Shown here: positions 1,546 through 11,115 of the stretch, piece after piece
How positions within the stretch are numbered: the stretch's first letter is position 1
How the letters are laid out: every line of letters starts with the position of its first letter
Source of the DNA: a virus
Lineage: Duplodnaviria; Heunggongvirae; Uroviricota; Caudoviricetes
Virus record (IMG/VR): IMGVR_UViG_2923302340_000003
DNA: 11,115 nucleotides
Reading direction: 5' to 3' (one strand)
The notes under the pieces: generated by a model
What the model was told of the DNA's origin: nothing
Seen by the model: the letters and a program-made list of their open reading frames with translations, nothing else
Databases searched by the model: none
Program-made: the position numbers and the translations under genes

Positions 1546-1571
1546 TTGCAAAAAGCCTTACCCGTAGGCTT
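1546..1571 (-). terminator. Candidate intrinsic terminator for the small minus-strand ORF
   Basis: AAGCCT (1553-1558) and AGGCTT (1566-1571) form a 6-bp stem with a 7-nt loop. On the minus strand the stem is followed by TTTGCAAC. It lies about 40 nt downstream of the stop at 1611. Confidence 0.35.
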
Positions 1572-1610
1572 AACATTTGGCTTGGCTGTAGTCTTACCGT
1601 AACGCTCCGC

Positions 1611-1790
1611 TCACCGTCGTGGCCTGTCCGGTTTCCGCCACTGATACGGCCTCACATCATCATGCTGGCGGCGTTCCTGTTGCAGCACAACGGAAACAGG
1701 CGCTGAACACCTGTTAATTTTGCTTGCTGTTTGTTTGATTCCGGCAATGCTGCGGATCATCTCCAGCATATCGGCTTCGGTGATGGTCAT
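1611..1790 (-). CDS. Small hypothetical protein (59 aa, MTITEADMLEMIRSIAGIKQ...), absent from the supplied ORF track
   Basis: Hand translation of the minus strand: ATG at 1790-1788, stop TGA at 1613-1611. AAGGTG Shine-Dalgarno lies 8-12 nt upstream (reverse complement of 1798-1803). A hairpin with T-run follows downstream. Confidence 0.35.
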   Translation of the reverse strand: MTITEADMLEMIRSIAGIKQTASKINRCSAPVSVVLQQERRQHDDVRPYQWRKPDRPRR

Positions 1791-1819
1791 GATTTACACC
1801 TTAGGAAATCTTAGGGGGC

Positions 1820-2090
1820 TGGTTGACACTTTCCGGCTTAAGACCTTAATAAATCTTAATATCGCAGGTTGACACACTTGACACTTTTTCGGGAAAAACC
1901 TTAACAAAACTTAACCATCCCTGGCATTTCTAAGCATGGCAACTTGACACTTTTCGCGATTTTTTCGGCTTTTTGACGAGGTAAATCTGGCGCAAAGCCA
2001 GTAACGGCGGGGTTTACAGCGAGGTTGACACTTTTTCGCGTTCAGAGTGTAAAGTGTCAACCTGGCAAGCTGCTCAACTTGACACTTTTT
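1820..2090. repeat. Iteron array 2: seven copies of TTGACACTTTT(T)CG-like repeats (six direct, one inverted), interspersed with CTTAA/CTTAG short repeats
   Basis: TTGACAC at 1823, 1869, 1878, 1944, 2024 and 2079. Inverted copy GTGTCAA at 2054-2060. Most are followed by a T4-5 run and CG. The array sits between the HTH gene end (2095) and the small ORF start (1790). Confidence 0.6.
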
Positions 2091-2094
2091 GATG

Positions 2095-2632
2095 TCATTG
2101 ATGGTCTGATTTTTCCCATTCAGCCAAGGCGTTTAGTCCTGCCTCACTCCATGTGTCCTGTTCATCGGGACAATCGCTGGCAACATAGCATAGTTCACAA
2201 CGCAACATACGAATTGCCAGCCAGGCATTACCCCGCAAATTGTATTGTTCAAAGTAATGCTGCCCGTCGCAATCCTCAAGGCAGATAGCACCACCATCAA
2301 GAAATTGCACTTCCCAGCCTAATTCCCCGGCTGCATTCAGCACACGCTGCCGTATGTCATCGTCCGTTACTGGTGCAGGGATTTTACCGTCTCTGGCCTT
2401 AACTGCTTTCCAGAACTCGCCCCACGTCATTTCCAGCGTTCTTTCTGGCCACATTTCAGAAACTGCGTCTTTTCCCTGTGCTGGTGGGCTGTTCCGCTGC
2501 TCTGTCGCTTCCACATCGATTTTTTTACCGGACATAACCACTTCGCCTTTCTCGATCCAGTCGTAAACTGTCTGGCGGCTTACGCCTTTGTGTTTGGCGT
2601 ATTCAGCTTTACTCATCAACATGTGGCTCACC
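2095..2632 (-). CDS. DNA-binding protein with N-terminal HTH (Nu1/excisionase-like, SKAEYAKHKGVSRQTVYDWIEKGE) and C-terminal Cys cluster (CX3C...CX2C)
   Basis: ORF on the minus strand. GAGGTGA Shine-Dalgarno 5 nt before ATG at 2632. The track's 2661 start is probably an upstream extension. HTH assignment is from motif resemblance only. Confidence 0.6.
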
Positions 2633-2687
2633 TCATGCATATACGATAAAAATAATTTCATGCGGAAAAGGAATGCGTTGTGGATAT

Positions 2688-2712
2688 GGAGGAAAGGGGC
2701 AATAACTGCCCC
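2688..2712 (-). terminator. Candidate intrinsic terminator after gene 2721..2993
   Basis: GGGGCA (2696-2701) and TGCCCC (2707-2712) form a 6-bp perfect stem with a 5-nt loop. On the minus strand it is followed by TTTCC. Confidence 0.4.
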
Positions 2713-2720
2713 TTGTTGAT

Positions 2721-2993
2721 TCAGTTACGCCAGGATGGCTGACTAAGCGTGGTTTTCATTACATCGTTGACGACCTGTTTTACGATTTCTGTGTTGGCTG
2801 TCGTGCTTTCAACATCAACAAAACCATAATCGCCAATTTCCACTGTCAGAGATTCCAGTTTCTTCCCCAGCGCATCAGGCAACTCTCCACTGAACCGGTG
2901 CTGAAGATTTTCCACCAGCAACGCCCTGAATGCCTCGCTGTTCTCTTTTTTCTGCCATAGCTGGCGTTTATCCACTCTGATATTTAATTTCAC
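2721..2993 (-). CDS. Hypothetical protein (90 aa), GTG start
   Basis: GTG start overlaps the TGA stop of the upstream gene in a GTGA arrangement. Strong AAGAGGTGA Shine-Dalgarno immediately upstream. Classic translational coupling. Confidence 0.6.
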   Translation of the reverse strand: MKLNIRVDKRQLWQKKENSEAFRALLVENLQHRFSGELPDALGKKLESLTVEIGDYGFVDVESTTANTEIVKQVVNDVMKTTLSQPSWRN

Positions 2994-3157
2994 AGTCTCA
3001 CCTCTTTAAGTGCCTTATCCATCAGTTGCCGGGCAATAACATGAATCGACGGCGCCACACCAAGCACAGATTTCTGACGCTCTTCGTCCTGGATACGTTG
3101 CAGGGCTTCAATCTGCCTCCGGGAAAGTAAAACTGGCTTTACTCCGTGACCTTTCAT
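2990..3157 (-). CDS. Small hypothetical protein (55 aa, MKGHGVKPVLLSRRQIEALQRIQDEERQK...), possible small regulator
   Basis: ATG at 3157 preceded by GGGAGA Shine-Dalgarno. The track ORF 2990..3226 has an implausible N-terminal extension. Confidence 0.5.
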   Translation of the reverse strand: MKGHGVKPVLLSRRQIEALQRIQDEERQKSVLGVAPSIHVIARQLMDKALKEVRL

Positions 3158-3189
3158 GATTTTTCTCCCGAATAATAACAACCACAACA

Positions 3190-3245
3190 ATTGCACAAAA
3201 TGAAATGATAGCGATAAATATTGCAATTAATGAAATGCAATAAGG
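3190..3245. promoter_or_regulatory. Two direct repeats ATTGCA-N4-ATGAAATG about 34 bp apart in the promoter region of the 55-aa gene; candidate regulator binding sites
   Basis: aattgcaCAAAatgaaatg and attgcaATTAatgaaatg, both read directly from the sequence. Confidence 0.3.
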
Positions 3246-3263
3246 CCGGGAAAAATCCCGGCC
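3229..3263 (-). terminator. Intrinsic terminator-like hairpin just downstream of the PerC-like gene
   Basis: GGCCGGG (3244-3250) and CCCGGCC (3257-3263) form a 7-bp perfect GC stem with a 6-nt loop. On the minus strand it is followed by TTATTGCATTTCATT. Confidence 0.5.
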
Positions 3264-3267
3264 TCCG

Positions 3268-3555
3268 TCACTGACTGCAATTTTTCGATCCAGGATATTT
3301 CCTGAATGCCTTACCATTGGGCTGATGTAATCCCATTCCGGCATGTGCCCGGCTGATGGTTTCGCGCATCTCCCCGAAATTATCCTGCTTTGCTGGTGGG
3401 CGTGCTGCCTTGCGGATACATTCCGCACGGCGCTTTGCCGCCTGTTCCCGTGCCTTGTCACCGTTCGCCAGCATAATGACCTCAGCCCACCGTTCCGCCG
3501 CTCTCCGGTACAGACCACGCGCTTCCAGTGCTTCCGCTTTGCTGTCGTGAATCAT
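3268..3555 (-). CDS. PerC-family-like transcriptional regulator (95 aa)
   Basis: The N-terminal motif AEALEARGLYRRAAERW resembles what I recall of PerC/Pch-type regulators. Start overlaps the stop of the upstream gene (ATGA). Family call is from memory, not searched. Confidence 0.5.
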   Translation of the reverse strand: MIHDSKAEALEARGLYRRAAERWAEVIMLANGDKAREQAAKRRAECIRKAARPPAKQDNFGEMRETISRAHAGMGLHQPNGKAFRKYPGSKNCSQ

Positions 3556-4094
3556 GCGCCTGTTTTCTCCTTTGCTGCCCGGCGCTGACGTTTGCGCTTC
3601 TCATTCAGCGCCACCAGCCGCGTTTCTGCGTCCTGTTGTTCCTGTGGTGTCACCTCGCCGCACGGCTGGCCTTTCAGGTCGTAGCGTACCCCACCAGCCA
3701 TTAAGGCGCGGTAATAGCGCGGACACTGCGCATAAGATGCCAGCGTCGCACGTAATGCCCCTGGCCCGAATGCCAGCCCCCTGACGGCGAGATCCTGCAT
3801 CAGGTCGTCGAATATCCCCACCTTAAGCGGCTTCGGTGCTTCCCGGCTGAATAATTCAGGCCACAACTCAGTGAGGCGGTTAACGCGCCTGCGGTTTTTG
3901 TGCTGGCGTTTGGTCATATGCCGCCACGGTGTCGCCCCTGTGGGCTTCTGCTGCGCTTTCTGGTTACCGGGCATCACTTTATGCGCCGATGTGGTTTTAT
4001 CCTGCTCCTGCGCCGCCTGCGTCGTTTTCTGCGGCGTGCCGTAAATGCCTTTAGGTTTTCTGTTAATGGTCAGCTTAGTCATGCTTTGCCCCAT
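3552..4094 (-). CDS. ProQ/FinO-domain RNA-binding protein with a basic N-terminal extension; true start may be the second ATG at 4082
   Basis: The segment LWPELFSREAPKPLKVGIFDDL...LRATLASYAQCPRYYRALMAGGVRYDLKGQPCGEV aligns by eye with the E. coli ProQ N-terminal domain (FPHCF...RPLKIGIFQDL...RVDLDGNPCGEL). Confidence 0.8.
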   Translation of the reverse strand: MGQSMTKLTINRKPKGIYGTPQKTTQAAQEQDKTTSAHKVMPGNQKAQQKPTGATPWRHMTKRQHKNRRRVNRLTELWPELFSREAPKPLKVGIFDDLMQDLAVRGLAFGPGALRATLASYAQCPRYYRALMAGGVRYDLKGQPCGEVTPQEQQDAETRLVALNEKRKRQRRAAKEKTGA

Positions 4095-4175
4095 CGTTTT
4101 TACTGATTGCTACGTTGCCCAACGGCACTGACACAACATTCTGTTTTCATTTTTAACATTCCTGATTTTTTAATT

Positions 4176-4560
4176 CCTCACCTGCTGCACAGTGAGAATT
4201 TATGAAGTTAATAACAATATGATTTTAAATGTATTTTTAAGTACTCACTTTTTAATCCTTATATATACGCAAAAGTGAGGTAAATAGTTAAGTTTTAGTT
4301 AATATCTTGCATGGTGTGTTTTTTAACCTACCTGTTATTTTATTACCTCATTTCTATTAACTCACCATTCCTCACTTTTGTTCCTCACTTTTTATTATTC
4401 TTGTTCTGCTCCTCAGTCGTTTTCTTTATTGTTGTAATCTGTTGTTTTGCAATGTGTTTTTAACTCCTCACTTTTTGACCTATATACAGGTGAGAAAGTG
4501 AGGAAAACAGGGATGATTTTTAAATATTCCCTGCCCCCTCACTTTTACGCCTCACTTTTT
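4176..4560. repeat. Iteron array 1 (probable replication origin): CCTCACTTTT repeats in an AT-rich region immediately downstream of the replication gene
   Basis: Direct copies at 4244, 4370, 4383, 4466, 4537 and 4550. Inverted copies AAAGTGAGG at 4272-4280 and 4495-4503. Partial copies at 4176, 4346 and 4361. The last copy abuts the rep stop codon. Confidence 0.65.
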
Positions 4561-5971
4561 ACAGTGGGCGCACATCATCACCGTCAATAGCGATTACGCC
4601 GTCACCTTCCAGCTTGTACAGCCAGCGCCGGAAGTTTTTCATCTCATACCCCAGCTTTTTCATGTCATCGCGCAACAACGGAATAGTGCATTTATCTCCG
4701 CGTTGCGTGCGTGAACGGATACAGCCCCATAGTGCGGCGTGATTCTCCGTCTTGTTCCCGGCTTCCTCGATGCGCTCCAGTTCAACTGGCGGACGGGGCT
4801 TATCCTCCAGCACCAACGACGTGATTAACTCCCCGCCTTCATCCTTGAAAAGCTCAACCTCGCGCAAATCGCAAGCCATTTCTTTCAGTTCCTCCGCATC
4901 CTTCATCTTGGTACATGCGATAACCAGGGCTTCACTGCCTGCACCTTCACGGCGTATCCGGTACTCTGCATCCAGTGCTGCACGAAACGCACTGGAACCG
5001 CGCGCACCCTTTGTTTCATCCTTGCCGGAATGGTGAATTACCAGCACTGTAGCGCCTGTACGCCGTTTCAGTTCGTCACATCCATGGACAAATGCCCCCA
5101 TATCCCGCGCATCATTTTCATCGCTGCCACCAAAGCAACGCGCCAGAGTATCCAGAATAATCATGCGTACAGGTTTACCCGTTTCCTGCTCAACCTGTCG
5201 GGCAGCAATAACCATTTCATCAACATCACTCGGTGCGGCCGGAAAAATTGGACGATTTACCAGGTACAGATTTTTCACCTGCTCACTGTTCACCAGTTCC
5301 CATGCCTTGATACGACGAGGAACACCGATCCCCCCCTCACCAACGACATACATCACCGCACCATGTACAACCCTGCGACCTCCCCACGGGATACCGGTAG
5401 CAACATGACACGCCCACGAACACGCAAGGAACGACTTATAAGAACCGCTCGCACCGTATGTGCTACATAGCGAATTAGCCGGAATCACACCCTTAACCAC
5501 ATAGCTAAGCTGTGAATCGTATCCTTCCGATCCAATGCTCATTGGTAGCGTGGTTTTTCGCTGGCTGTATTGCTCGTCAGTAAGCATTTCTTCGCGCTCT
5601 GCCTGTTCGCGGATCCGTTGCAGGTAATCGCGCCAGTTCTCCGGCTCCCGGTCGGTGATGCCTTTGTATAATTTCGCCTCCTGTACGCCAGCCAGTGCCA
5701 GTTTTTCAGCGATAGCATTGATCTGGATTGGTTCGATCTCCCCCGCGAGATAGACACGCGCAAAGCGGCGTTCATCGTCGACAATGCGGATATTCGCCAG
5801 GTCTGCCAGTTGCTTTGGCCCCAGGTAAACAGGTGGTACGTTATCGCCGTGTTTTCGTCCTTCGCTTTCAATCCAGTGTTGAGCATGGGCGTAAGCATCC
5901 GTCCCGGCAAAAATGATTACCTCAGTGAATTTATCCTTCGGCTGATATTTCAAACTCGGTGCGTTTTTCAC
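4559..5971 (-). CDS. Replication protein: N-terminal TOPRIM-like region fused to a RecA-fold (RepA/DnaB-like) ATPase; putative primase/helicase
   Basis: Walker A GASGSYKS and Walker B-like MIILDTL are present. N-terminal acidic motifs (FAGTD, IVDDE) suggest TOPRIM. The start is directly adjacent to the upstream stop. Iterons lie immediately downstream. Confidence 0.8.
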   Translation of the reverse strand: MKNAPSLKYQPKDKFTEVIIFAGTDAYAHAQHWIESEGRKHGDNVPPVYLGPKQLADLANIRIVDDERRFARVYLAGEIEPIQINAIAEKLALAGVQEAKLYKGITDREPENWRDYLQRIREQAEREEMLTDEQYSQRKTTLPMSIGSEGYDSQLSYVVKGVIPANSLCSTYGASGSYKSFLACSWACHVATGIPWGGRRVVHGAVMYVVGEGGIGVPRRIKAWELVNSEQVKNLYLVNRPIFPAAPSDVDEMVIAARQVEQETGKPVRMIILDTLARCFGGSDENDARDMGAFVHGCDELKRRTGATVLVIHHSGKDETKGARGSSAFRAALDAEYRIRREGAGSEALVIACTKMKDAEELKEMACDLREVELFKDEGGELITSLVLEDKPRPPVELERIEEAGNKTENHAALWGCIRSRTQRGDKCTIPLLRDDMKKLGYEMKNFRRWLYKLEGDGVIAIDGDDVRPL

Positions 5972-6258
5972 TTCTTACCTCCCGCAACCAACATTGCCCG
6001 GATTTTTTTAATATTCGTGGCTGCACGTCTTGCCACTGCCTGTTGTTTGTTTTCAACCAGAATAAAATCACGCTCAAACTGACGGCGCGGCATTACGCAG
6101 TCATATTCGTAAGCCTCACGGCGGTAGGTGATATTGCCTGGCGTAACGTGACGAATAACCACTCGTCCCCCACGTCTGGTGTCGCGGTAAATATCGCCGT
6201 GTCTGATTTCAGGCCGAGCGGGGCCGCTGGCAGTAAAGCCAGAATTTTTCTTTTTCAT
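5968..6258 (-). CDS. Hypothetical protein (96 aa), coupled to the replication gene
   Basis: AGGAAA Shine-Dalgarno upstream of ATG at 6258. Its stop is directly adjacent to the rep start codon. Confidence 0.55.
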   Translation of the reverse strand: MKKKNSGFTASGPARPEIRHGDIYRDTRRGGRVVIRHVTPGNITYRREAYEYDCVMPRRQFERDFILVENKQQAVARRAATNIKKIRAMLVAGGKK

Positions 6259-6262
6259 GGTT

Positions 6263-6463
6263 TTATTTTCCTGTCAGCAGTTCCGGTTTTATTTCCGCAC
6301 GAATACAAAGTTCAGAAAAAAATTCAGGAGAACCAACAATCTCATTACTTTTCAGTCGGCATTGTGATTTCACTTTCCCTTTATCCAGGTAAACCAGTAC
6401 GCGTCCGGTGAAATCATCTGGCACACTCAGGGTAATTGTCATTGTTGCTTGCTGATTATCCAT
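6263..6463 (-). CDS. Hypothetical small protein (66 aa) with one copy of an FTG-x-LV...G-x-V-x-S...RL module
   Basis: 8-nt overlap with the upstream gene. Shares a motif with the 121-aa protein encoded at 6456..6821. Confidence 0.55.
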   Translation of the reverse strand: MDNQQATMTITLSVPDDFTGRVLVYLDKGKVKSQCRLKSNEIVGSPEFFSELCIRAEIKPELLTGK

Positions 6464-6821
6464 GATTCACCCCCTGAATAACCTGATAACCGCAACTGGT
6501 CAGCAATTCGATAAATTCCGGCAGTGTGCCGAAACAGCAATCATCACGCATACGTTCGCGGGATACCTCAACGCCGTTTTCGTAGTGACTCACCATGCGT
6601 CCAGTAAAATGCAGATCATCATCGTGATGGCACGTTGACGGCTTAATCAGTCGCGCACGTTCTGCCAGCTCCAGCAATGCTTCAACACTTCCGGCAATTG
6701 CACCATCCGGCAGGCGATAATTACTTACCACGCGTCCATTCTCCACATTGACCAGTAGCTGCCCGGTAAATTTCTCATCAAACTGAATGCTGTTAAGGTC
6801 AGAAATTGACAGGTTATGCAT
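6456..6821 (-). CDS. Hypothetical protein (121 aa) with two tandem copies of the same module (FTGQLLVNVENGRVVSNYRL and FTGRMVSHYENGVEVSRER)
   Basis: Strong AGGAGGTG Shine-Dalgarno 5 nt upstream of ATG at 6821. 8-nt overlaps with both neighbouring genes. Confidence 0.6.
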   Translation of the reverse strand: MHNLSISDLNSIQFDEKFTGQLLVNVENGRVVSNYRLPDGAIAGSVEALLELAERARLIKPSTCHHDDDLHFTGRMVSHYENGVEVSRERMRDDCCFGTLPEFIELLTSCGYQVIQGVNHG

Positions 6822-7179
6822 GGTGCACCTCCTGGCGAATACGGGCGGCGAATACCATCACACAGCCATCAGGAGATTGCTGGCGTGCTTCCTGTTCGCT
6901 GGTGGCCTCGATGTGAATTACGCGCGGTTGTGCCGTGCTCAGGGCGATAAAACGCCAGATAAAATTGTTCTCGCATTTCTGAATAAACAGCGTGTTTTCT
7001 TCGCGCCCTTTCCATGTTGCCGAGATATAGCCCATGTCATTGAGCATCTCGCAGGCATCCACCAGCGTATCAGCGGCTACGTGTACAGTGTTTTTACCGT
7101 CAGCCATGCAATCACGGTGCACCGCCAGGAAGGTGTATATAAATTTAGGGTGAGTTTGGGTATGCTGTGTTCCAGCCAT
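6814..7179 (-). CDS. Hypothetical protein (121 aa, MAGTQHTQTHPKFIYTF...), first gene of the replication operon
   Basis: GGAG Shine-Dalgarno 9-12 nt upstream of ATG at 7179. The track's 335-aa ORF (to 7821) is an artefactual upstream extension that crosses the divergent promoter and the opposite-strand gene. Confidence 0.55.
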   Translation of the reverse strand: MAGTQHTQTHPKFIYTFLAVHRDCMADGKNTVHVAADTLVDACEMLNDMGYISATWKGREENTLFIQKCENNFIWRFIALSTAQPRVIHIEATSEQEARQQSPDGCVMVFAARIRQEVHHA

Positions 7180-7253
7180 AATCGTTACTCCAGTTAACGG
7201 TTTGGTTAGACGCCCTGCATGTGTTGCGAGCACTGCGGGGCGTCGCTCTTTTA

Positions 7254-7305
7254 GGTGTATTTCACCTTTGCTTTTTAATTTACTCACTGGTGAAATACAC
7301 TTCAA
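7254..7305. promoter_or_regulatory. Operator-like perfect 12-bp inverted repeat GTGTATTTCACC-N22-GGTGAAATACAC overlapping a candidate minus-strand sigma70 promoter
   Basis: Left arm 7254-7265, right arm 7288-7299. Candidate minus-strand promoter: -35 TTGAAG (reverse complement of 7299-7304) and -10 TAAATT (reverse complement of 7276-7281) with 17-bp spacing. TATACT at 7331-7336 may be the -10 for the plus-strand gene. Confidence 0.5.
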
Positions 7306-7366
7306 GCCTTTTTTTATCATTTTTTTTGCGTATACTGACATACACCAATTTTTAGGAGATCCAGAA

Positions 7367-7546
7367 ATGGCAACTGGTGCAAAGAACGCAAAATCACAAA
7401 TGACAACTGTCAGAATCCCACATGAAGTAATGGATGATATTGAGCAACTTAAAGAACCTGGCGAAAGTACCGCTGGTTTTTTAGTTACTGCCGCAAAAGG
7501 CGAGATCAAACGCCGCCAGCGTCGCAAGGCCAAAGAGCAGGAGTAG
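7367..7546 (+). CDS. Small protein (59 aa, MATGAKNAKSQMTTVRIPHEVMDDIEQLKEPGE...) divergent from the replication operon; candidate regulator
   Basis: AGGAG Shine-Dalgarno 7-11 nt upstream of ATG at 7367. Basic C-terminal tail. The track ORF 7202..7546 has an implausible N-terminal extension. Confidence 0.5.
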   Translation: MATGAKNAKSQMTTVRIPHEVMDDIEQLKEPGESTAGFLVTAAKGEIKRRQRRKAKEQE

Positions 7547-7767
7547 TTGATCAGCACCGGACGACCAGAAAAAATTGCATCAGTCGCGCCACCAGCAGTA
7601 TTTTTTGCTTTCCGGACAGCGTGGCCAACGGCATTTTGCAGCAAAATATTCTGCATTTCTGGCGTGCTGTAGAAACGGTGATCAGCGCCTTCACATTGAA
7701 CGAACTTGTCGCTAAAATTCACCCACATAGCAAACATCGCGGTGCTGTAGGTAATTCGTTCACAAAG

Positions 7768-7798
7768 GCGCTCCGGCAACGGGGCGCTTTTTCTTTTT
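7768..7798 (+). terminator. Strong rho-independent terminator (plus strand), possibly weakly bidirectional
   Basis: GCGCTCCG (7768-7775) pairs with CGGGGCGC (7780-7787) around a GCAA tetraloop. This is an 8-bp stem with one G-U pair, followed by TTTTTCTTTTT (7788-7798). Confidence 0.7.
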
Positions 7799-7813
7799 GT
7801 AACGGTCAGAGCG

Positions 7814-8614
7814 TTACACATGGCTGTTTTCCTCCATGCGACGGGCTAACCAACGCTGCGAAAGACGAATTAATTCAGCTTTCCGCTGGTGGTAGTCCTG
7901 GCCTAACTCAATCAGCGTGATATTGCTCTGCTCAAGGTAAGAAAGGTGCTCAAGCTGCAACGTGCTCATGTGGTCGCGTGGTTCGCCTGTGATGCCGTTC
8001 GCCTGCGCCCACTGTTTTGCAGTCATGCCACCCAGCACGATACGCGCCAGCATATTGGCTTCCGTGGTGTAGTGGTGCTGGAACGTGTTTTTACCCAGTT
8101 CAGCCCGGTACGCCTCCAGCGCGGCGCACATCGGCTTAAAGTAACTGGCAACGGTGATACGGGCTTTCAGTTCCCGGCGTAACGCTGCGGAACGAACAGG
8201 CGCTACCTTGTGTAGCTCCTCCTCGCATTTGATGAAGTACTGACGAACGGCGCGGCCCTGTTCGGTGCGTTCGACCATCGCCAGTTCTTTCGCCATGTTC
8301 ACGGTAATGATGTACTCAAGAGCTGTTTGCTGGCGAGATTTTGCGCTCACCGGATCGGGTCGGCTCAAATATTCAACAACCTCATAATCCACGCCTTCCG
8401 TGAAGCCGTATTCTTCAATGCGCCCCTTGATCCACGAACGGAAAACGCGACCTACACCTAACGCCTTATGCAACGCTCTGGCGCTAACAATATTGGTTTC
8501 ACACCCGCCAATAATGCCGGAAATAACCGGGATAATTTCGCCGAAATTTTGCAGATTCTGGTTTTCAGGCCGAACGAAGCCCTGCCCCTGTACGGGCGTT
8601 TTTCGCAGTTTCAT
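7814..8614 (-). CDS. Phage antirepressor-like protein (AntA-type N-terminal domain)
   Basis: The N-terminal region SARALHKALGVGRVFRSWIKGRIEEYGFTEGVDYEV resembles the AntA antirepressor domain pattern, recalled from memory. 266-aa ORF. Confidence 0.65.
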   Translation of the reverse strand: MKLRKTPVQGQGFVRPENQNLQNFGEIIPVISGIIGGCETNIVSARALHKALGVGRVFRSWIKGRIEEYGFTEGVDYEVVEYLSRPDPVSAKSRQQTALEYIITVNMAKELAMVERTEQGRAVRQYFIKCEEELHKVAPVRSAALRRELKARITVASYFKPMCAALEAYRAELGKNTFQHHYTTEANMLARIVLGGMTAKQWAQANGITGEPRDHMSTLQLEHLSYLEQSNITLIELGQDYHQRKAELIRLSQRWLARRMEENSHV

Positions 8615-8691: not shown

Positions 8692-8919
8692 TCAGGCTGA
8701 TGTGTTTCGGCGTTCTTCCAGCCAGCGATTAATCTCTACCGCATCGAATGCAGTGCTTTTCTCACCCAGTTTGATGGGCTTAGGCATCTTCCCGCTACGC
8801 ACCCAACGATCGAGCGTTGATAAGCTGGTACCCAGCAATTCAGCCAGGCGATAGCGGCGGATATAGCCAGTTGCAGGGATTGCGGTTTGAAGTATTGGTT
8901 GGTTTTTCATATGCCCCAT
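8692..8919 (-). CDS. alpA: AlpA-family phage transcriptional regulator (about 72-75 aa)
   Basis: Motif RYRLAELLGTSLSTLDRWVRSGKMPKPIKLGEKSTAFDAVEINRWL matches the AlpA/Vis-type pattern. The track ORF start at 9003 is an extension. Likely start is ATG at 8919 or 8910. Confidence 0.75.
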   Translation of the reverse strand: MGHMKNQPILQTAIPATGYIRRYRLAELLGTSLSTLDRWVRSGKMPKPIKLGEKSTAFDAVEINRWLEERRNTSA

Positions 8920-9022
8920 TACCTTTGTTGTTGGTTTGTGATTCGTAATAGGGGCATTAAATAACAAATGAAATGATGTGTGTGTGAGTTTTAGAAAAAA
9001 CACTGTGACTTTTCTTATTTCA

Positions 9023-9805
9023 CTATCTAAAACGCTCTCGCCAGCTTTTCCAAGTGTTCTTATCTGGTTGTGGGATTACAATGCCTTTTTGAGCACCTAT
9101 TTGTGCAATTTTTTTATTTAACTTGTTAGGCGGCAAAGATATTATCTCATTGTCTGTTAATCCGGCAATTCTTAATAATCCATATATCATTTTAAATTGA
9201 TGTATTGTTAATCTTGGTAACTTGTGATTTTCTTTTTTTATAGTGTTGTTTATGGAGTAAATTGGAAATCCATTTGTTATTGATTTATAAAGGTTGTCAA
9301 TGTGCTCTCTGGTTATTAATAATGAATCAGGTGTAATCTTAATGTTGCCGCTTGTTTTTGCATGGCATGAAAAAATAAATGTGGGATTCGCAGTGCGACG
9401 TGAAAGCGGTATGGATGTATTCATAGAGATAGTTTTGTTTCTTACTATAGTCTCTTGAATATCAAAAACTCCAGAAACCTTTGCCTCAAAAATAACACCA
9501 TTTTCTTTTATTTCATCACTATATTCATGAATAATTATGCCAAGAGAGGAAATTTCTTTTTTGATGAGAAAAGAAATAAAATCAATATAGTCTTCATCCT
9601 TTGGCCATGTAAAATCACGATAACCAAAATACCCCTCACAGTAAGCATTTTTTATTTTTGTGGCAAAATTAATTCTGTTAATATCCTGCCAATGCCATAA
9701 ATCATCTATTTCACATTCTAAAATTTGAGCTGCTCTATCTAAAGAGCAGAATTCTAATGGAGGTAATTGTTTTTTTTGCCATATTGTTTCATTAATATTT
9801 GTCAT
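9023..9805 (-). CDS. AT-rich orphan hypothetical protein (260 aa) inserted between int and alpA; candidate cargo gene
   Basis: Uninterrupted ORF in a block that is clearly more AT-rich than the flanking int and alpA genes. Asn/Ile/Lys-rich. No recognisable motif. Confidence 0.65.
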   Translation of the reverse strand: MTNINETIWQKKQLPPLEFCSLDRAAQILECEIDDLWHWQDINRINFATKIKNAYCEGYFGYRDFTWPKDEDYIDFISFLIKKEISSLGIIIHEYSDEIKENGVIFEAKVSGVFDIQETIVRNKTISMNTSIPLSRRTANPTFIFSCHAKTSGNIKITPDSLLITREHIDNLYKSITNGFPIYSINNTIKKENHKLPRLTIHQFKMIYGLLRIAGLTDNEIISLPPNKLNKKIAQIGAQKGIVIPQPDKNTWKSWRERFR

Positions 9806-9861: not shown

Positions 9862-11115
9862 TTATTTATTAGATTGCGTGATGTCAGAACATATCATGTT
9901 TTCTAAATTCACCAGCAAATCAGTCCACTGTGCCAGCGCCGCTTTGCGCTCATCAAAATATTGATGGCGGTTATAAATGCCCTCTACGCCTTTTATGCGG
10001 TGGTTAAGGCATCGTTCAGCAACGATCGGGTCAACTCCCAATGCTGCTAAATGTGTTCGTGCTGTTCGCCGGAAGTCGTGAATTGTAAAGTTGGGGACGT
10101 TCGGCATTTCTGCTCTGACTTTTGCCAATGCAACAGGAAGGGTGCTTTCCTGGATGTGAGGGATCATTCTGTGCTGCATTTTTCTGGCAGGTAATACCCA
10201 TGCGCTATTGCATGAAAATGTGTGCAATTCTCGCAACCATTCTATGGTCGCTGGTGGTAATGGTATGTCGATAGCATCGCCATTTTTAGTTCGTTGTTCT
10301 GGTAGATGCCAAATCGCGCCATCTAAGTCGAATTCATCCCACCTGGCGGCGCATAATTCCATTTTTCTGACACACAATGCTAAGAGCAACTTAAAGGTTA
10401 ATTCGTTCTGGCGGCTGAATCCTTTGGCTTTACGCATGGCCTGAAAAAATTGGATTAATTCGTCACGGTTCAGCCAGCGATCACGAGATAATTCTTTCCC
10501 ACCAGCATCTGATACTTCAAAAGCTGAGCAGGGGTTAACCTCCAAAGCAAGGCGTTTAATACCGTAGTCAAATATTCGACGTGTCCACCGAAGAACGTCA
10601 GTAGCAATTGTTGGAGCGCCTCTATCAACAATGCTTTTAAGCATGGCATCAATATGGCGTGGTTTTACATCTTCAACCTTCATGTGGCCTATGGCAGGAT
10701 TTATGTCTTTATCAATGCGCCTGCGGAGAATATCTGGGTGTTTCCATCGGGGAAGTATTTGCCGTGCAAAGTATTCGGCGGCAAGTTCAGAAACATGCAG
10801 CGCGTTTTTTTCAGCTTCTATTTTTGCCAGTGCTTCGGCTTTACGCTGCTGTTTTTCTGCGGCTACGTCATATCCCAAAGCAACTCGTGCGGAAAGTTCT
10901 TTTGCCAGTTCCCTGGCTTTTGATAACGATAATTCAGAATATGAACCAATAAGCATGGCACGAGATTTTCCCGCCAGTTTATATCGAAACCGCCATGTCG
11001 GGGATCTATCCACCTCTCTATACCGGAGATATAGCCCACCACCATCAGCACGACCTTCGAAATGTTCTCCGGCTTTTATCCATGCGCGGATCTGCATATC
11101 TGTGAGTTTTGGCAT
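9862..11115 (-). CDS. int: P4-type tyrosine integrase (417 aa), apparently full length
   Basis: N-terminus MPKLTDMQIRAW...GGGLYLRY is typical of P4-family integrases. C-terminal catalytic motifs HDFRRTARTHL and EGIYNRHQY (Tyr nucleophile) are present. Confidence 0.9.
   Translation of the reverse strand: MPKLTDMQIRAWIKAGEHFEGRADGGGLYLRYREVDRSPTWRFRYKLAGKSRAMLIGSYSELSLSKARELAKELSARVALGYDVAAEKQQRKAEALAKIEAEKNALHVSELAAEYFARQILPRWKHPDILRRRIDKDINPAIGHMKVEDVKPRHIDAMLKSIVDRGAPTIATDVLRWTRRIFDYGIKRLALEVNPCSAFEVSDAGGKELSRDRWLNRDELIQFFQAMRKAKGFSRQNELTFKLLLALCVRKMELCAARWDEFDLDGAIWHLPEQRTKNGDAIDIPLPPATIEWLRELHTFSCNSAWVLPARKMQHRMIPHIQESTLPVALAKVRAEMPNVPNFTIHDFRRTARTHLAALGVDPIVAERCLNHRIKGVEGIYNRHQYFDERKAALAQWTDLLVNLENMICSDITQSNK

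Follow-up and report, generated by a model that had tools for sequence, protein, structure and literature searches.

Tandem copies of a probable Rem-family module in small proteins encoded at the epsilon position of a phage satellite

The repeated module and its relationship to Rem

The 11,115-nt viral record IMGVR_UViG_2923302340_000003 (the window, as the whole analyzed stretch is called here) carries an operon in which the genes of an Icd-like protein, a 121-amino-acid (aa) protein, a 66-aa protein, a DUF4222 protein and a replication protein follow one another on the minus strand (Table 1). An initial annotation had described, within positions 6263-7179, a module of roughly 45 aa occurring twice in the 121-aa protein and once in the 66-aa protein, and this repeat proved to be real. 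In Smith-Waterman comparisons scored against 5000 shuffles, the N-terminal half of the 121-aa protein aligned to its C-terminal half with a score of 63 (shuffled, 19.4 ± 3.6; z = 12; 0/5000) and to the 66-aa protein with a score of 83 (20.9 ± 3.9; z = 15.8; 0/5000), while the C-terminal half aligned to the 66-aa protein with a score of 45 (20.5 ± 4.1; z = 6.0; 3/5000). The similarity among the three copies was thus significant, and an independent library profile, PHROG family phrog_340 (function unknown), matched two stretches of the 121-aa protein (7e-29) and one of the 66-aa protein (2.5e-17). Our own module profile found two domains in the 121-aa protein, with independent E-values of 2.4e-20 and 2.1e-19 (the profile itself includes these sequences), connected by a His/Asp-rich linker, CHHDDDLH. 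The motif first read from the sequence was recovered in alignment A1, in which G20, G29, S33, E51 and L52 do not vary and T19, R36, L37 and G44 hardly vary. The 121-aa protein that carries the module is the one encoded at 6456-6821; the same span holds a second open reading frame (ORF) of 121 codons, 6814-7179, whose Icd-like product was rejected as a module carrier (z = 1.0 and -1.0 against the module proteins).

No similarity was detectable at the DNA level among the three module copies, and the duplication is therefore old. Because both genes are also under purifying selection (nonsynonymous to synonymous rate ratio, dN/dS, 0.13-0.52 against two E. coli orthologues), the three copies are old paralogues maintained by selection, neither a recent duplication nor an artefact. 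The AlphaFold (AF2) model of the 66-aa protein (predicted local distance difference test score, pLDDT, 74.8) places a β-hairpin in strands 21-27 and 30-37, followed by a helix at 46-56; each half of the 121-aa protein was likewise modeled as a hairpin plus a helix, but with a mean pLDDT of only 52. Scans of both proteins against Pfam-A and NCBIfam returned no family, and the same scan of all 40 members of the module profile (A3, 40 sequences) gave scattered noise only. Sequence searches of the PDB with each protein and with A3 yielded nothing credible, the best being a 20-residue match to the RING of RNF4 (E 0.001), and none of 50,697 phage records was matched by the 121-aa protein in tblastn.

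The module is no orphan and can be assigned with good support from profile comparison to a named Pfam family, Rem (PF27490). Alignment of A3 with the Rem-family alignment A4 (hhalign, profile to profile) gave a probability of 96.4% (E 1.3e-9) over 48 columns that span the hairpin and the helix. Rem itself (b1561, encoded by prophage Qin of E. coli K-12) was matched by the module profile in hmmsearch with an E-value of 3.9e-10 (single comparison) and in hhalign, as a single sequence, with a probability of 93%. Precomputed PF27490 assignments exist for close homologues of the 121-aa protein (P0021, P0023; homologous proteins and compared loci are given by P and L numbers), for a Bro-N fusion protein (P0130) and for all Rem homologues. 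The family is therefore already known by name, with one characterised member. The 66-aa protein fits the size of its members, which are single domains of ~65-90 aa encoded on mobile elements, and the 121-aa protein would be a two-domain tandem variant. Like the module proteins, Rem is a small mobile-element protein of Enterobacteriaceae with a hairpin and a helix; unlike them, it is a single protein of 83 aa whose gene stands alone in a lambdoid prophage, within the nin region, whereas the window has three module copies, two fused in one chain, within a satellite replication operon. Identity to Rem over the module is only ~20-30%. Rem (L005, 4652-4903) has an extra N-terminal hairpin, YAVCVENGNLVSHYRI, closely resembling that of module 1 in the 121-aa protein, LLVNVENGRVVSNYRL; because of this resemblance, Rem may hold a partial internal duplication of the hairpin unit.

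An exhaustive profile search collected ~95 module clusters at 50% identity, mostly single-module proteins of 60-90 aa, with the consensus L.V.P.FTGRVLV..ENG.V.S...L..DE...SL..F.ELA..AGY.V; the taxonomic spread so described rests on protein searches and a few contigs. Proteins with two modules appear repeatedly in other lineages (P0104, P0107, P0109, P0118 and P0125). In one prophage (L015), a single-module gene lies in the early-left operon, and the repressor is a DicA homologue (38% identity, 8e-30). A second, fused architecture was also seen, with a Rem-like module at the end of the Bro-N protein P0130 (L004, 262-816) and of the ORF6N protein STM2616 (L006, Gifsy-1, 33513-34076); these fusion genes lie between the Q antiterminator/late region and the lysis cassette.

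Table 1 Annotated features of the window, in order from the integrase end.
Feature	Position	Strand	Basis or remark
P4-type tyrosine integrase	9862..11115	-	Pfam Arm-DNA-bind_3, Phage_int_M, Phage_integrase
260-aa protein, function unassigned	9023-9805	-	
AlpA-family regulator	8692..9003	-	Pfam Phage_AlpA 1.8e-8; true start probably inside ORF
AntA/AntB antirepressor-family protein, 266 aa	7814..8614	-	Pfam PF08346 2.4e-23
YlcI/YnfO-family small protein, 59 aa	7367..7546	+	NCBIfam NF041551 9.2e-18
Divergent control region, Icd-like operon versus ylcI/ynfO	7180..7366	.	hairpin and three GGTGTATTTCA-type elements
Icd-like protein, 121 aa, first gene of the operon	6814..7179	-	NCBIfam NF033153 phage_ICD_like 4.7e-23
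8-nt overlap ATGCATAA, Icd-like stop/121-aa start	6814..6821	-	Shine-Dalgarno-like AGGAGGTG ahead, within the upstream coding sequence
121-aa protein, two tandem modules, probably Rem family	6456..6821	-	ORF; internal repeat z = 12; phrog_340
Module 1 of the 121-aa protein, residues ~14-63	6633-6782	-	profile domain
Module 2 of the 121-aa protein, residues ~70-119	6465-6614	-	profile domain
8-nt overlap ATGGATAA, 121-aa stop/66-aa start	6456..6463	-	Shine-Dalgarno-like GGGGGTG ahead, within the upstream coding sequence
66-aa protein, one module, probably Rem family	6263..6463	-	ORF; phrog_340; core residues ~14-62 = 6278-6424
DUF4222 protein, 96 aa	5968..6258	-	Pfam PF13973 1.4e-19
Replication protein, RepA/AAA_25 helicase family, 470 aa	4559..5971	-	Pfam AAA_25 3.8e-44; phrog_2850 full length
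ProQ/FinO-family protein	3552-4094	-	family scans
PerC-family regulator	3268-3555	-	family scans

The epsilon slot, operon junctions and strain variants

The window encodes an integrase, AlpA, AntA, Icd-like, DUF4222, RepA helicase, ProQ/FinO and PerC proteins, and family scans detected no virion structural or lysis genes among the proteins of this 11-kb window, the far end of the element lying beyond it. Integrase, AlpA and a primase or replicase without virion or lysis genes, in ~10-20 kb, are the gene content of phage-inducible chromosomal islands (PICIs), and the window is an int-AlpA-AntA-primase/helicase phage satellite of the EcCIMP1 (PICI) type, which upholds the satellite context assumed by the initial annotation. 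The same layout was found in E. coli 55989 (L002), at tRNA-Thr beside proA, the site of EcCIMP1, a PICI demonstrated by experiment that phage Kapi1 induces and transfers; helper induction and packaging have been shown only for that island (PMC11773190). EcCIMP1 and related Gram-negative PICIs share with the window the order integrase, AlpA, AntA, Icd-like, DUF4222, primase/helicase and PerC, but EcCIMP1 has different small ORFs, none with a Rem-type module, at the place of the module genes; the small genes are not discussed in the paper describing it (PMC11773190).

That place is the epsilon slot of P4. In the P4 genome (L012), an Icd-like ORF (8168-8584; NF033153, 7.8e-21) is followed through an 8-nt overlap with an embedded GGAGGTG (junction GGAGGTGTCCC GTGCGTAA) by the epsilon gene (7888-8175) and then by orf151 (7440-7895), orf106 and the alpha primase. 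Epsilon, annotated as 'helper derepression protein' and matching the Pfam family Derepression (PF25738, 9e-51), derepresses the helper prophage P2 according to the P4 record (also Liu et al. 1997, as cited in PMC13612085). The module genes occupy the same slot: like epsilon, they come directly after an Icd-like ORF, with an 8-nt overlap and an embedded Shine-Dalgarno sequence, upstream of a primase/helicase gene in a satellite of int/AlpA(Vis) type. The proteins themselves differ, since epsilon has 95 aa and no internal repeat; homology of epsilon or orf151 to the module was rejected (no match to the A3 hidden Markov model, nothing by blastp), and no window protein matched the Derepression family. 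P4 further differs in having sid/delta/psu and CI RNA immunity, neither of which was found in the window (for CI RNA, the Rfam search was empty). The P4 ORF at 8168-8584 is annotated 'cI gene product / transcriptional repressor' and matches Pfam Ash as well as the NCBIfam Icd-like family, and the PHROG families matched by the Icd-like protein of the window are labelled 'transcriptional repressor'; this label may stem from the legacy P4 annotation and not from evidence.

A comparable arrangement is the immI operon of P1, c4 RNA - icd - ant, where translation of an antirepressor gene is coupled to that of an Icd-family ORF upstream of it. There the downstream gene is Ant1/2 and C4 RNA is present; in the window, Rem-type modules lie downstream, the AntA-family gene is separate and upstream, and no C4 RNA was detected.

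Two of the operon's junctions, Icd-like/121-aa and 121-aa/66-aa, are 8-nt start/stop overlaps. The initial annotation had extended such overlaps to the whole chain, which is right for these two only: the 66-aa and DUF4222 genes are separated by a 4-nt gap, and the DUF4222 and replication genes overlap by 4 nt. Likewise, the module genes do lie upstream of the replication gene in the same operon, as it had stated, but with the DUF4222 gene in between, and the replication protein is of the RepA/AAA_25 helicase type, its counterpart in L001 carrying the annotation 'helicase RepA family protein'. Related satellites always have DUF4222 after the module gene and before the replication gene, the order being the same in L003, L013 and L016. 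The small ORFs of the operon share near-identical junctions, with the Shine-Dalgarno sequence in a C-terminal '..(E/G)V.H(A/G)' tail followed by ATGnATAA. In E. coli APEC20/16 (L001, 6557-7365), two unrelated helical ORFs of 74 and 77 aa are inserted exactly at such junctions, and the region thus behaves as a cassette slot. These two cassette proteins, and the neighbouring small ORFs in L003, L007 and L008, matched no Pfam family.

The control region contains a GC-rich hairpin (7209-7244; arms 7209-7219 and 7234-7244) in the presumptive 5' leader of the operon and three copies of the GGTGTATTTCA-type element (7250-7266, 7289-7305 and 7336-7346) in an operator-like inverted-repeat arrangement. 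A sigma-70 scan of 7180-7366 found no consensus and no convincing operon promoter. LexA boxes were not matched in the promoter regions, the six one-mismatch matches all lying elsewhere against a chance expectation of 3.2, and no C4/CI-type RNA, nor any other family, was matched when the complete window was compared with Rfam (E<=0.1).

Module genes recur in the same slot of other enterobacterial satellites with differing replicases: Zn-ribbon/Toprim/DUF927 in L003, DUF927 in L008-L010, and DUF4222 plus DUF927 downstream of the slot, with Bro-N upstream, in L013 and L014; in L016, a different two-module protein precedes a D5-type primase. E. coli genomes show the same small genes beside RepA, 'DNA primase family' or DUF927 proteins, and this variety argues against a role tied to one replicase. 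The L016 satellite (1565-7734) directly adjoins the end of a P2-like prophage (gpD, Ogr/Delta; 1-1302), a possible helper-adjacent arrangement.

A search of 5426 complete E. coli genomes detected module DNA in 436, of which 194 have both genes. Among the protein clusters we identified in-register recombinant and deletion variants, several of them on multiple contigs, in which hairpin 1 is joined to helix 2 (83-91 aa), the leader of the 121-aa protein to module 2 (67 aa), or the same leader to the body of the 66-aa module. The leader and body of the 66-aa gene diverge differently between strains, indicating recombination at the module boundary.

A putative antirepressor role and its alternatives

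Ectopic expression of Rem increased dicBp-lacZ activity 165-fold and caused dicBF-dependent filamentation (Ragunathan et al., J Bacteriol 2023, PMC10448788). The dicB promoter is repressed by DicA, a short non-cleavable CI-like repressor, and Rem was found by iterated PSI-BLAST searches that started from Salmonella Gifsy and Fels antirepressors (PMC10448788). These antirepressors (GfoA/GftA/FsoA) are ~70-aa proteins that inactivate DicA/RacR-like repressors by binding; the Gifsy proteins bind short non-cleavable repressors and strip them from DNA, forming complexes that fit an A2B2 composition (Lemire et al., PLoS Genet 2011, PMC3121763). FsoA is encoded in an early-left operon, as is the module gene of prophage L015. 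The Gifsy genes form LexA-controlled dinI-antirepressor-irsA operons, whereas the ORFs of the window include no dinI or irsA homologue and its promoter regions no LexA-box match. In a profile search of Gifsy-1, the ORF6N protein STM2616 was the only match.

On the strength of the homology to Rem and of the position in the epsilon slot, we consider that there is about an even chance that the module genes are coupled in translation and encode antirepressors directed at short prophage repressors of the DicA type, the 121-aa protein acting as a single-chain dimer. That the proteins are antirepressors, which class of repressor they target, how they oligomerize and what the satellite gains are all inferences. 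Activation of the operon, which in PICIs AlpA brings about following helper activity, would lead to coupled translation of the Icd-like, 121-aa and 66-aa proteins by way of the ATGnATAA overlaps with their embedded Shine-Dalgarno sequences. The module proteins would then attach to CI-like repressors of the DicA/RacR/Gifsy type, which are short and non-cleavable, and remove them from their operators, so that resident lambdoid or cryptic prophages would be derepressed, as helper P2 is by epsilon. The 66-aa protein might work as a homodimer and the 121-aa protein as a pseudo-dimer whose halves are covalently joined, an idea suggested by the elution of Gifsy complexes as A2B2 (PMC3121763) and by the recurrence of two-module proteins in other lineages. 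Three diverged copies, together with the recombinants of other strains, could provide different or broader repressor specificities. Supporting associations are the single-module gene in prophage L015 with its DicA homologue and the fusion of the module to Bro-N/ORF6N domains, which are of antirepressor type, along with the AntA-family protein encoded by the island itself.

Several observations weigh against this proposal. Rem is the sole family member with experimental data, and its direct binding to DicA was not demonstrated, the authors calling it a putative antirepressor (PMC10448788); the module proteins, moreover, lack its extra N-terminal hairpin. The comparison of A3 with GftA (LT2 STM2621.1n) was marginal, in the expected register (hhalign P=0.003, probability 10%), and that of the Rem profile A4 with GftA was not significant, for which reason the functional argument rests on Rem and not on the Gifsy proteins. 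Structure searches gave no match for the model of the 66-aa protein, of modest confidence (pLDDT 75), or for the poor model of the 121-aa protein (pLDDT 52), leaving the suggested dimer and pseudo-dimer without structural support. No DicA-type repressor is encoded in the window. With neither a LexA box nor a C4/CI-type RNA, the control of the operon differs from that of known antirepressor operons. Finally, EcCIMP1, an experimentally studied PICI, was scanned for the module and does not have it, which argues that a satellite can complete its life cycle without it.

Four other explanations were weighed. The module proteins could be accessory replication factors, such as helicase or primase loaders or origin-binding adaptors, unrelated to repressors. 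Their genes do always directly precede DUF4222 and the replication gene, with which they form one translationally linked chain, but a specific partner would not be expected beside replicases as unrelated as RepA helicase, DUF927, Zn-ribbon/Toprim and D5-type proteins; relatives also occur far from replication genes (Rem in the Qin nin region, P0130 by the lysis cassette, the L015 gene in an early-left operon), and EcCIMP1 replicates and transfers without module proteins (PMC11773190), making a replication role quite improbable. Another reading is that the module genes are decaying or neutral cassette cargo and the repeat a historical leftover. Many truncated or chimeric variants are indeed found in databases, and EcCIMP1 lacks the module, but dN/dS values of 0.13-0.5, conservation of the module over ~95 clusters at 50% identity, conserved position and translational coupling, and the presence of module DNA in 436/5426 complete E. 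coli genomes render this very improbable.

Small, fast-recombining, multi-copy satellite proteins are typical of phage-satellite conflict, and the module variants resemble specificity shuffling. Together with the effect of EcCIMP1-type islands on superinfection by the helper (PMC11773190), this would suit interference or hijacking factors that bind a non-repressor phage protein, such as a late activator, terminase or capsid. We regard this as unlikely, as neither homology nor context suggests packaging or morphogenesis, the genes lie in an early operon apart from the presumed packaging genes downstream of the replicase, and the sole functional datum for the family is repressor antagonism. The initial annotation had offered both interference and derepression; the latter has gained support from the Rem homology and the epsilon slot, and nothing was found for the former. 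The proteins might also be antirepressors serving host manipulation, in that inactivation of DicA/RacR in cryptic prophages would free DicB/DicF-type division inhibitors, complementing the Icd-like protein and arresting division during satellite replication. Rem expression does lead to dicBF-dependent filamentation (PMC10448788), and the first gene of the operon belongs to a family named for the P1 cell-division inhibitor Icd. Yet the strategy would be fragile, given that cryptic prophages like Qin are not found universally, and the Icd-like annotation is by family name only; we consider this version distinctly unlikely. None of the four alternatives has positive evidence beyond position.

If the module proteins are antirepressors of prophage repressors, as proposed above, many E. 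coli and Salmonella satellites could wake prophages that do not respond through RecA cleavage. According to existing descriptions, Gram-negative PICIs stay passive until alpA is turned on by a helper phage, and active induction of the helper prophage by a satellite is known only for P4, which achieves it through epsilon; satellite-triggered helper induction would then be a general strategy beyond P4, of consequence for prophage induction, toxin-phage release and horizontal transfer. A recurrent set of 'hypothetical' genes would acquire a function, and the single-chain and homodimeric forms would offer a natural pair for studying how small antirepressors recognize repressor dimers. Taken in its widest form, the proposal would be that widespread enterobacterial PICI-type satellites carry in the epsilon slot a recombining array of Rem-type antirepressors that actively induces prophages with non-cleavable DicA/Gifsy-type repressors, the tandem fusion being a single-chain dimer and the shuffling retuning its targets; as a whole, this is doubtful. 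A full-text literature search found no description of a Rem-type module in PICI-type satellites, of the triplication with a two-domain fusion, of the occupation of the epsilon slot or of the recombinants. Should the module proteins not be antirepressors, they would still provide a clean case of cassette shuffling at conserved translational-coupling junctions.

Other genes of the island

The gene of the AntA/AntB-family protein (7814-8614) lies between alpA and the Icd-like operon, in the same orientation as the operon, and the island may thus hold two unrelated antirepressor-type functions, this protein and the module proteins. Transcription of ylcI/ynfO is directed away from the Icd-like operon, and its product is a candidate local regulator. 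The best identity of E. coli sequence to the window was ~97%.

The region downstream of the replicase is the usual place of packaging-redirection genes in PICIs. In the window, it contains the gene of a 188-aa protein (2095-2661) whose only family match is a weak HTH_17-type helix-turn-helix at its N terminus (E 8e-4). The ProQ/FinO and PerC pair (3268-4094) also lies downstream of the replicase, likewise in other EcCIMP1-like islands, and the PerC homologue of EcCIMP1 has been reported to repress LEE (locus of enterocyte effacement) expression (PMC11773190). At the far end of the window, on the opposite strand, the gene for a DUF3800 protein (1-762) overlaps a 163-aa ORF without a family (753-1244), and both look like accessory island cargo.

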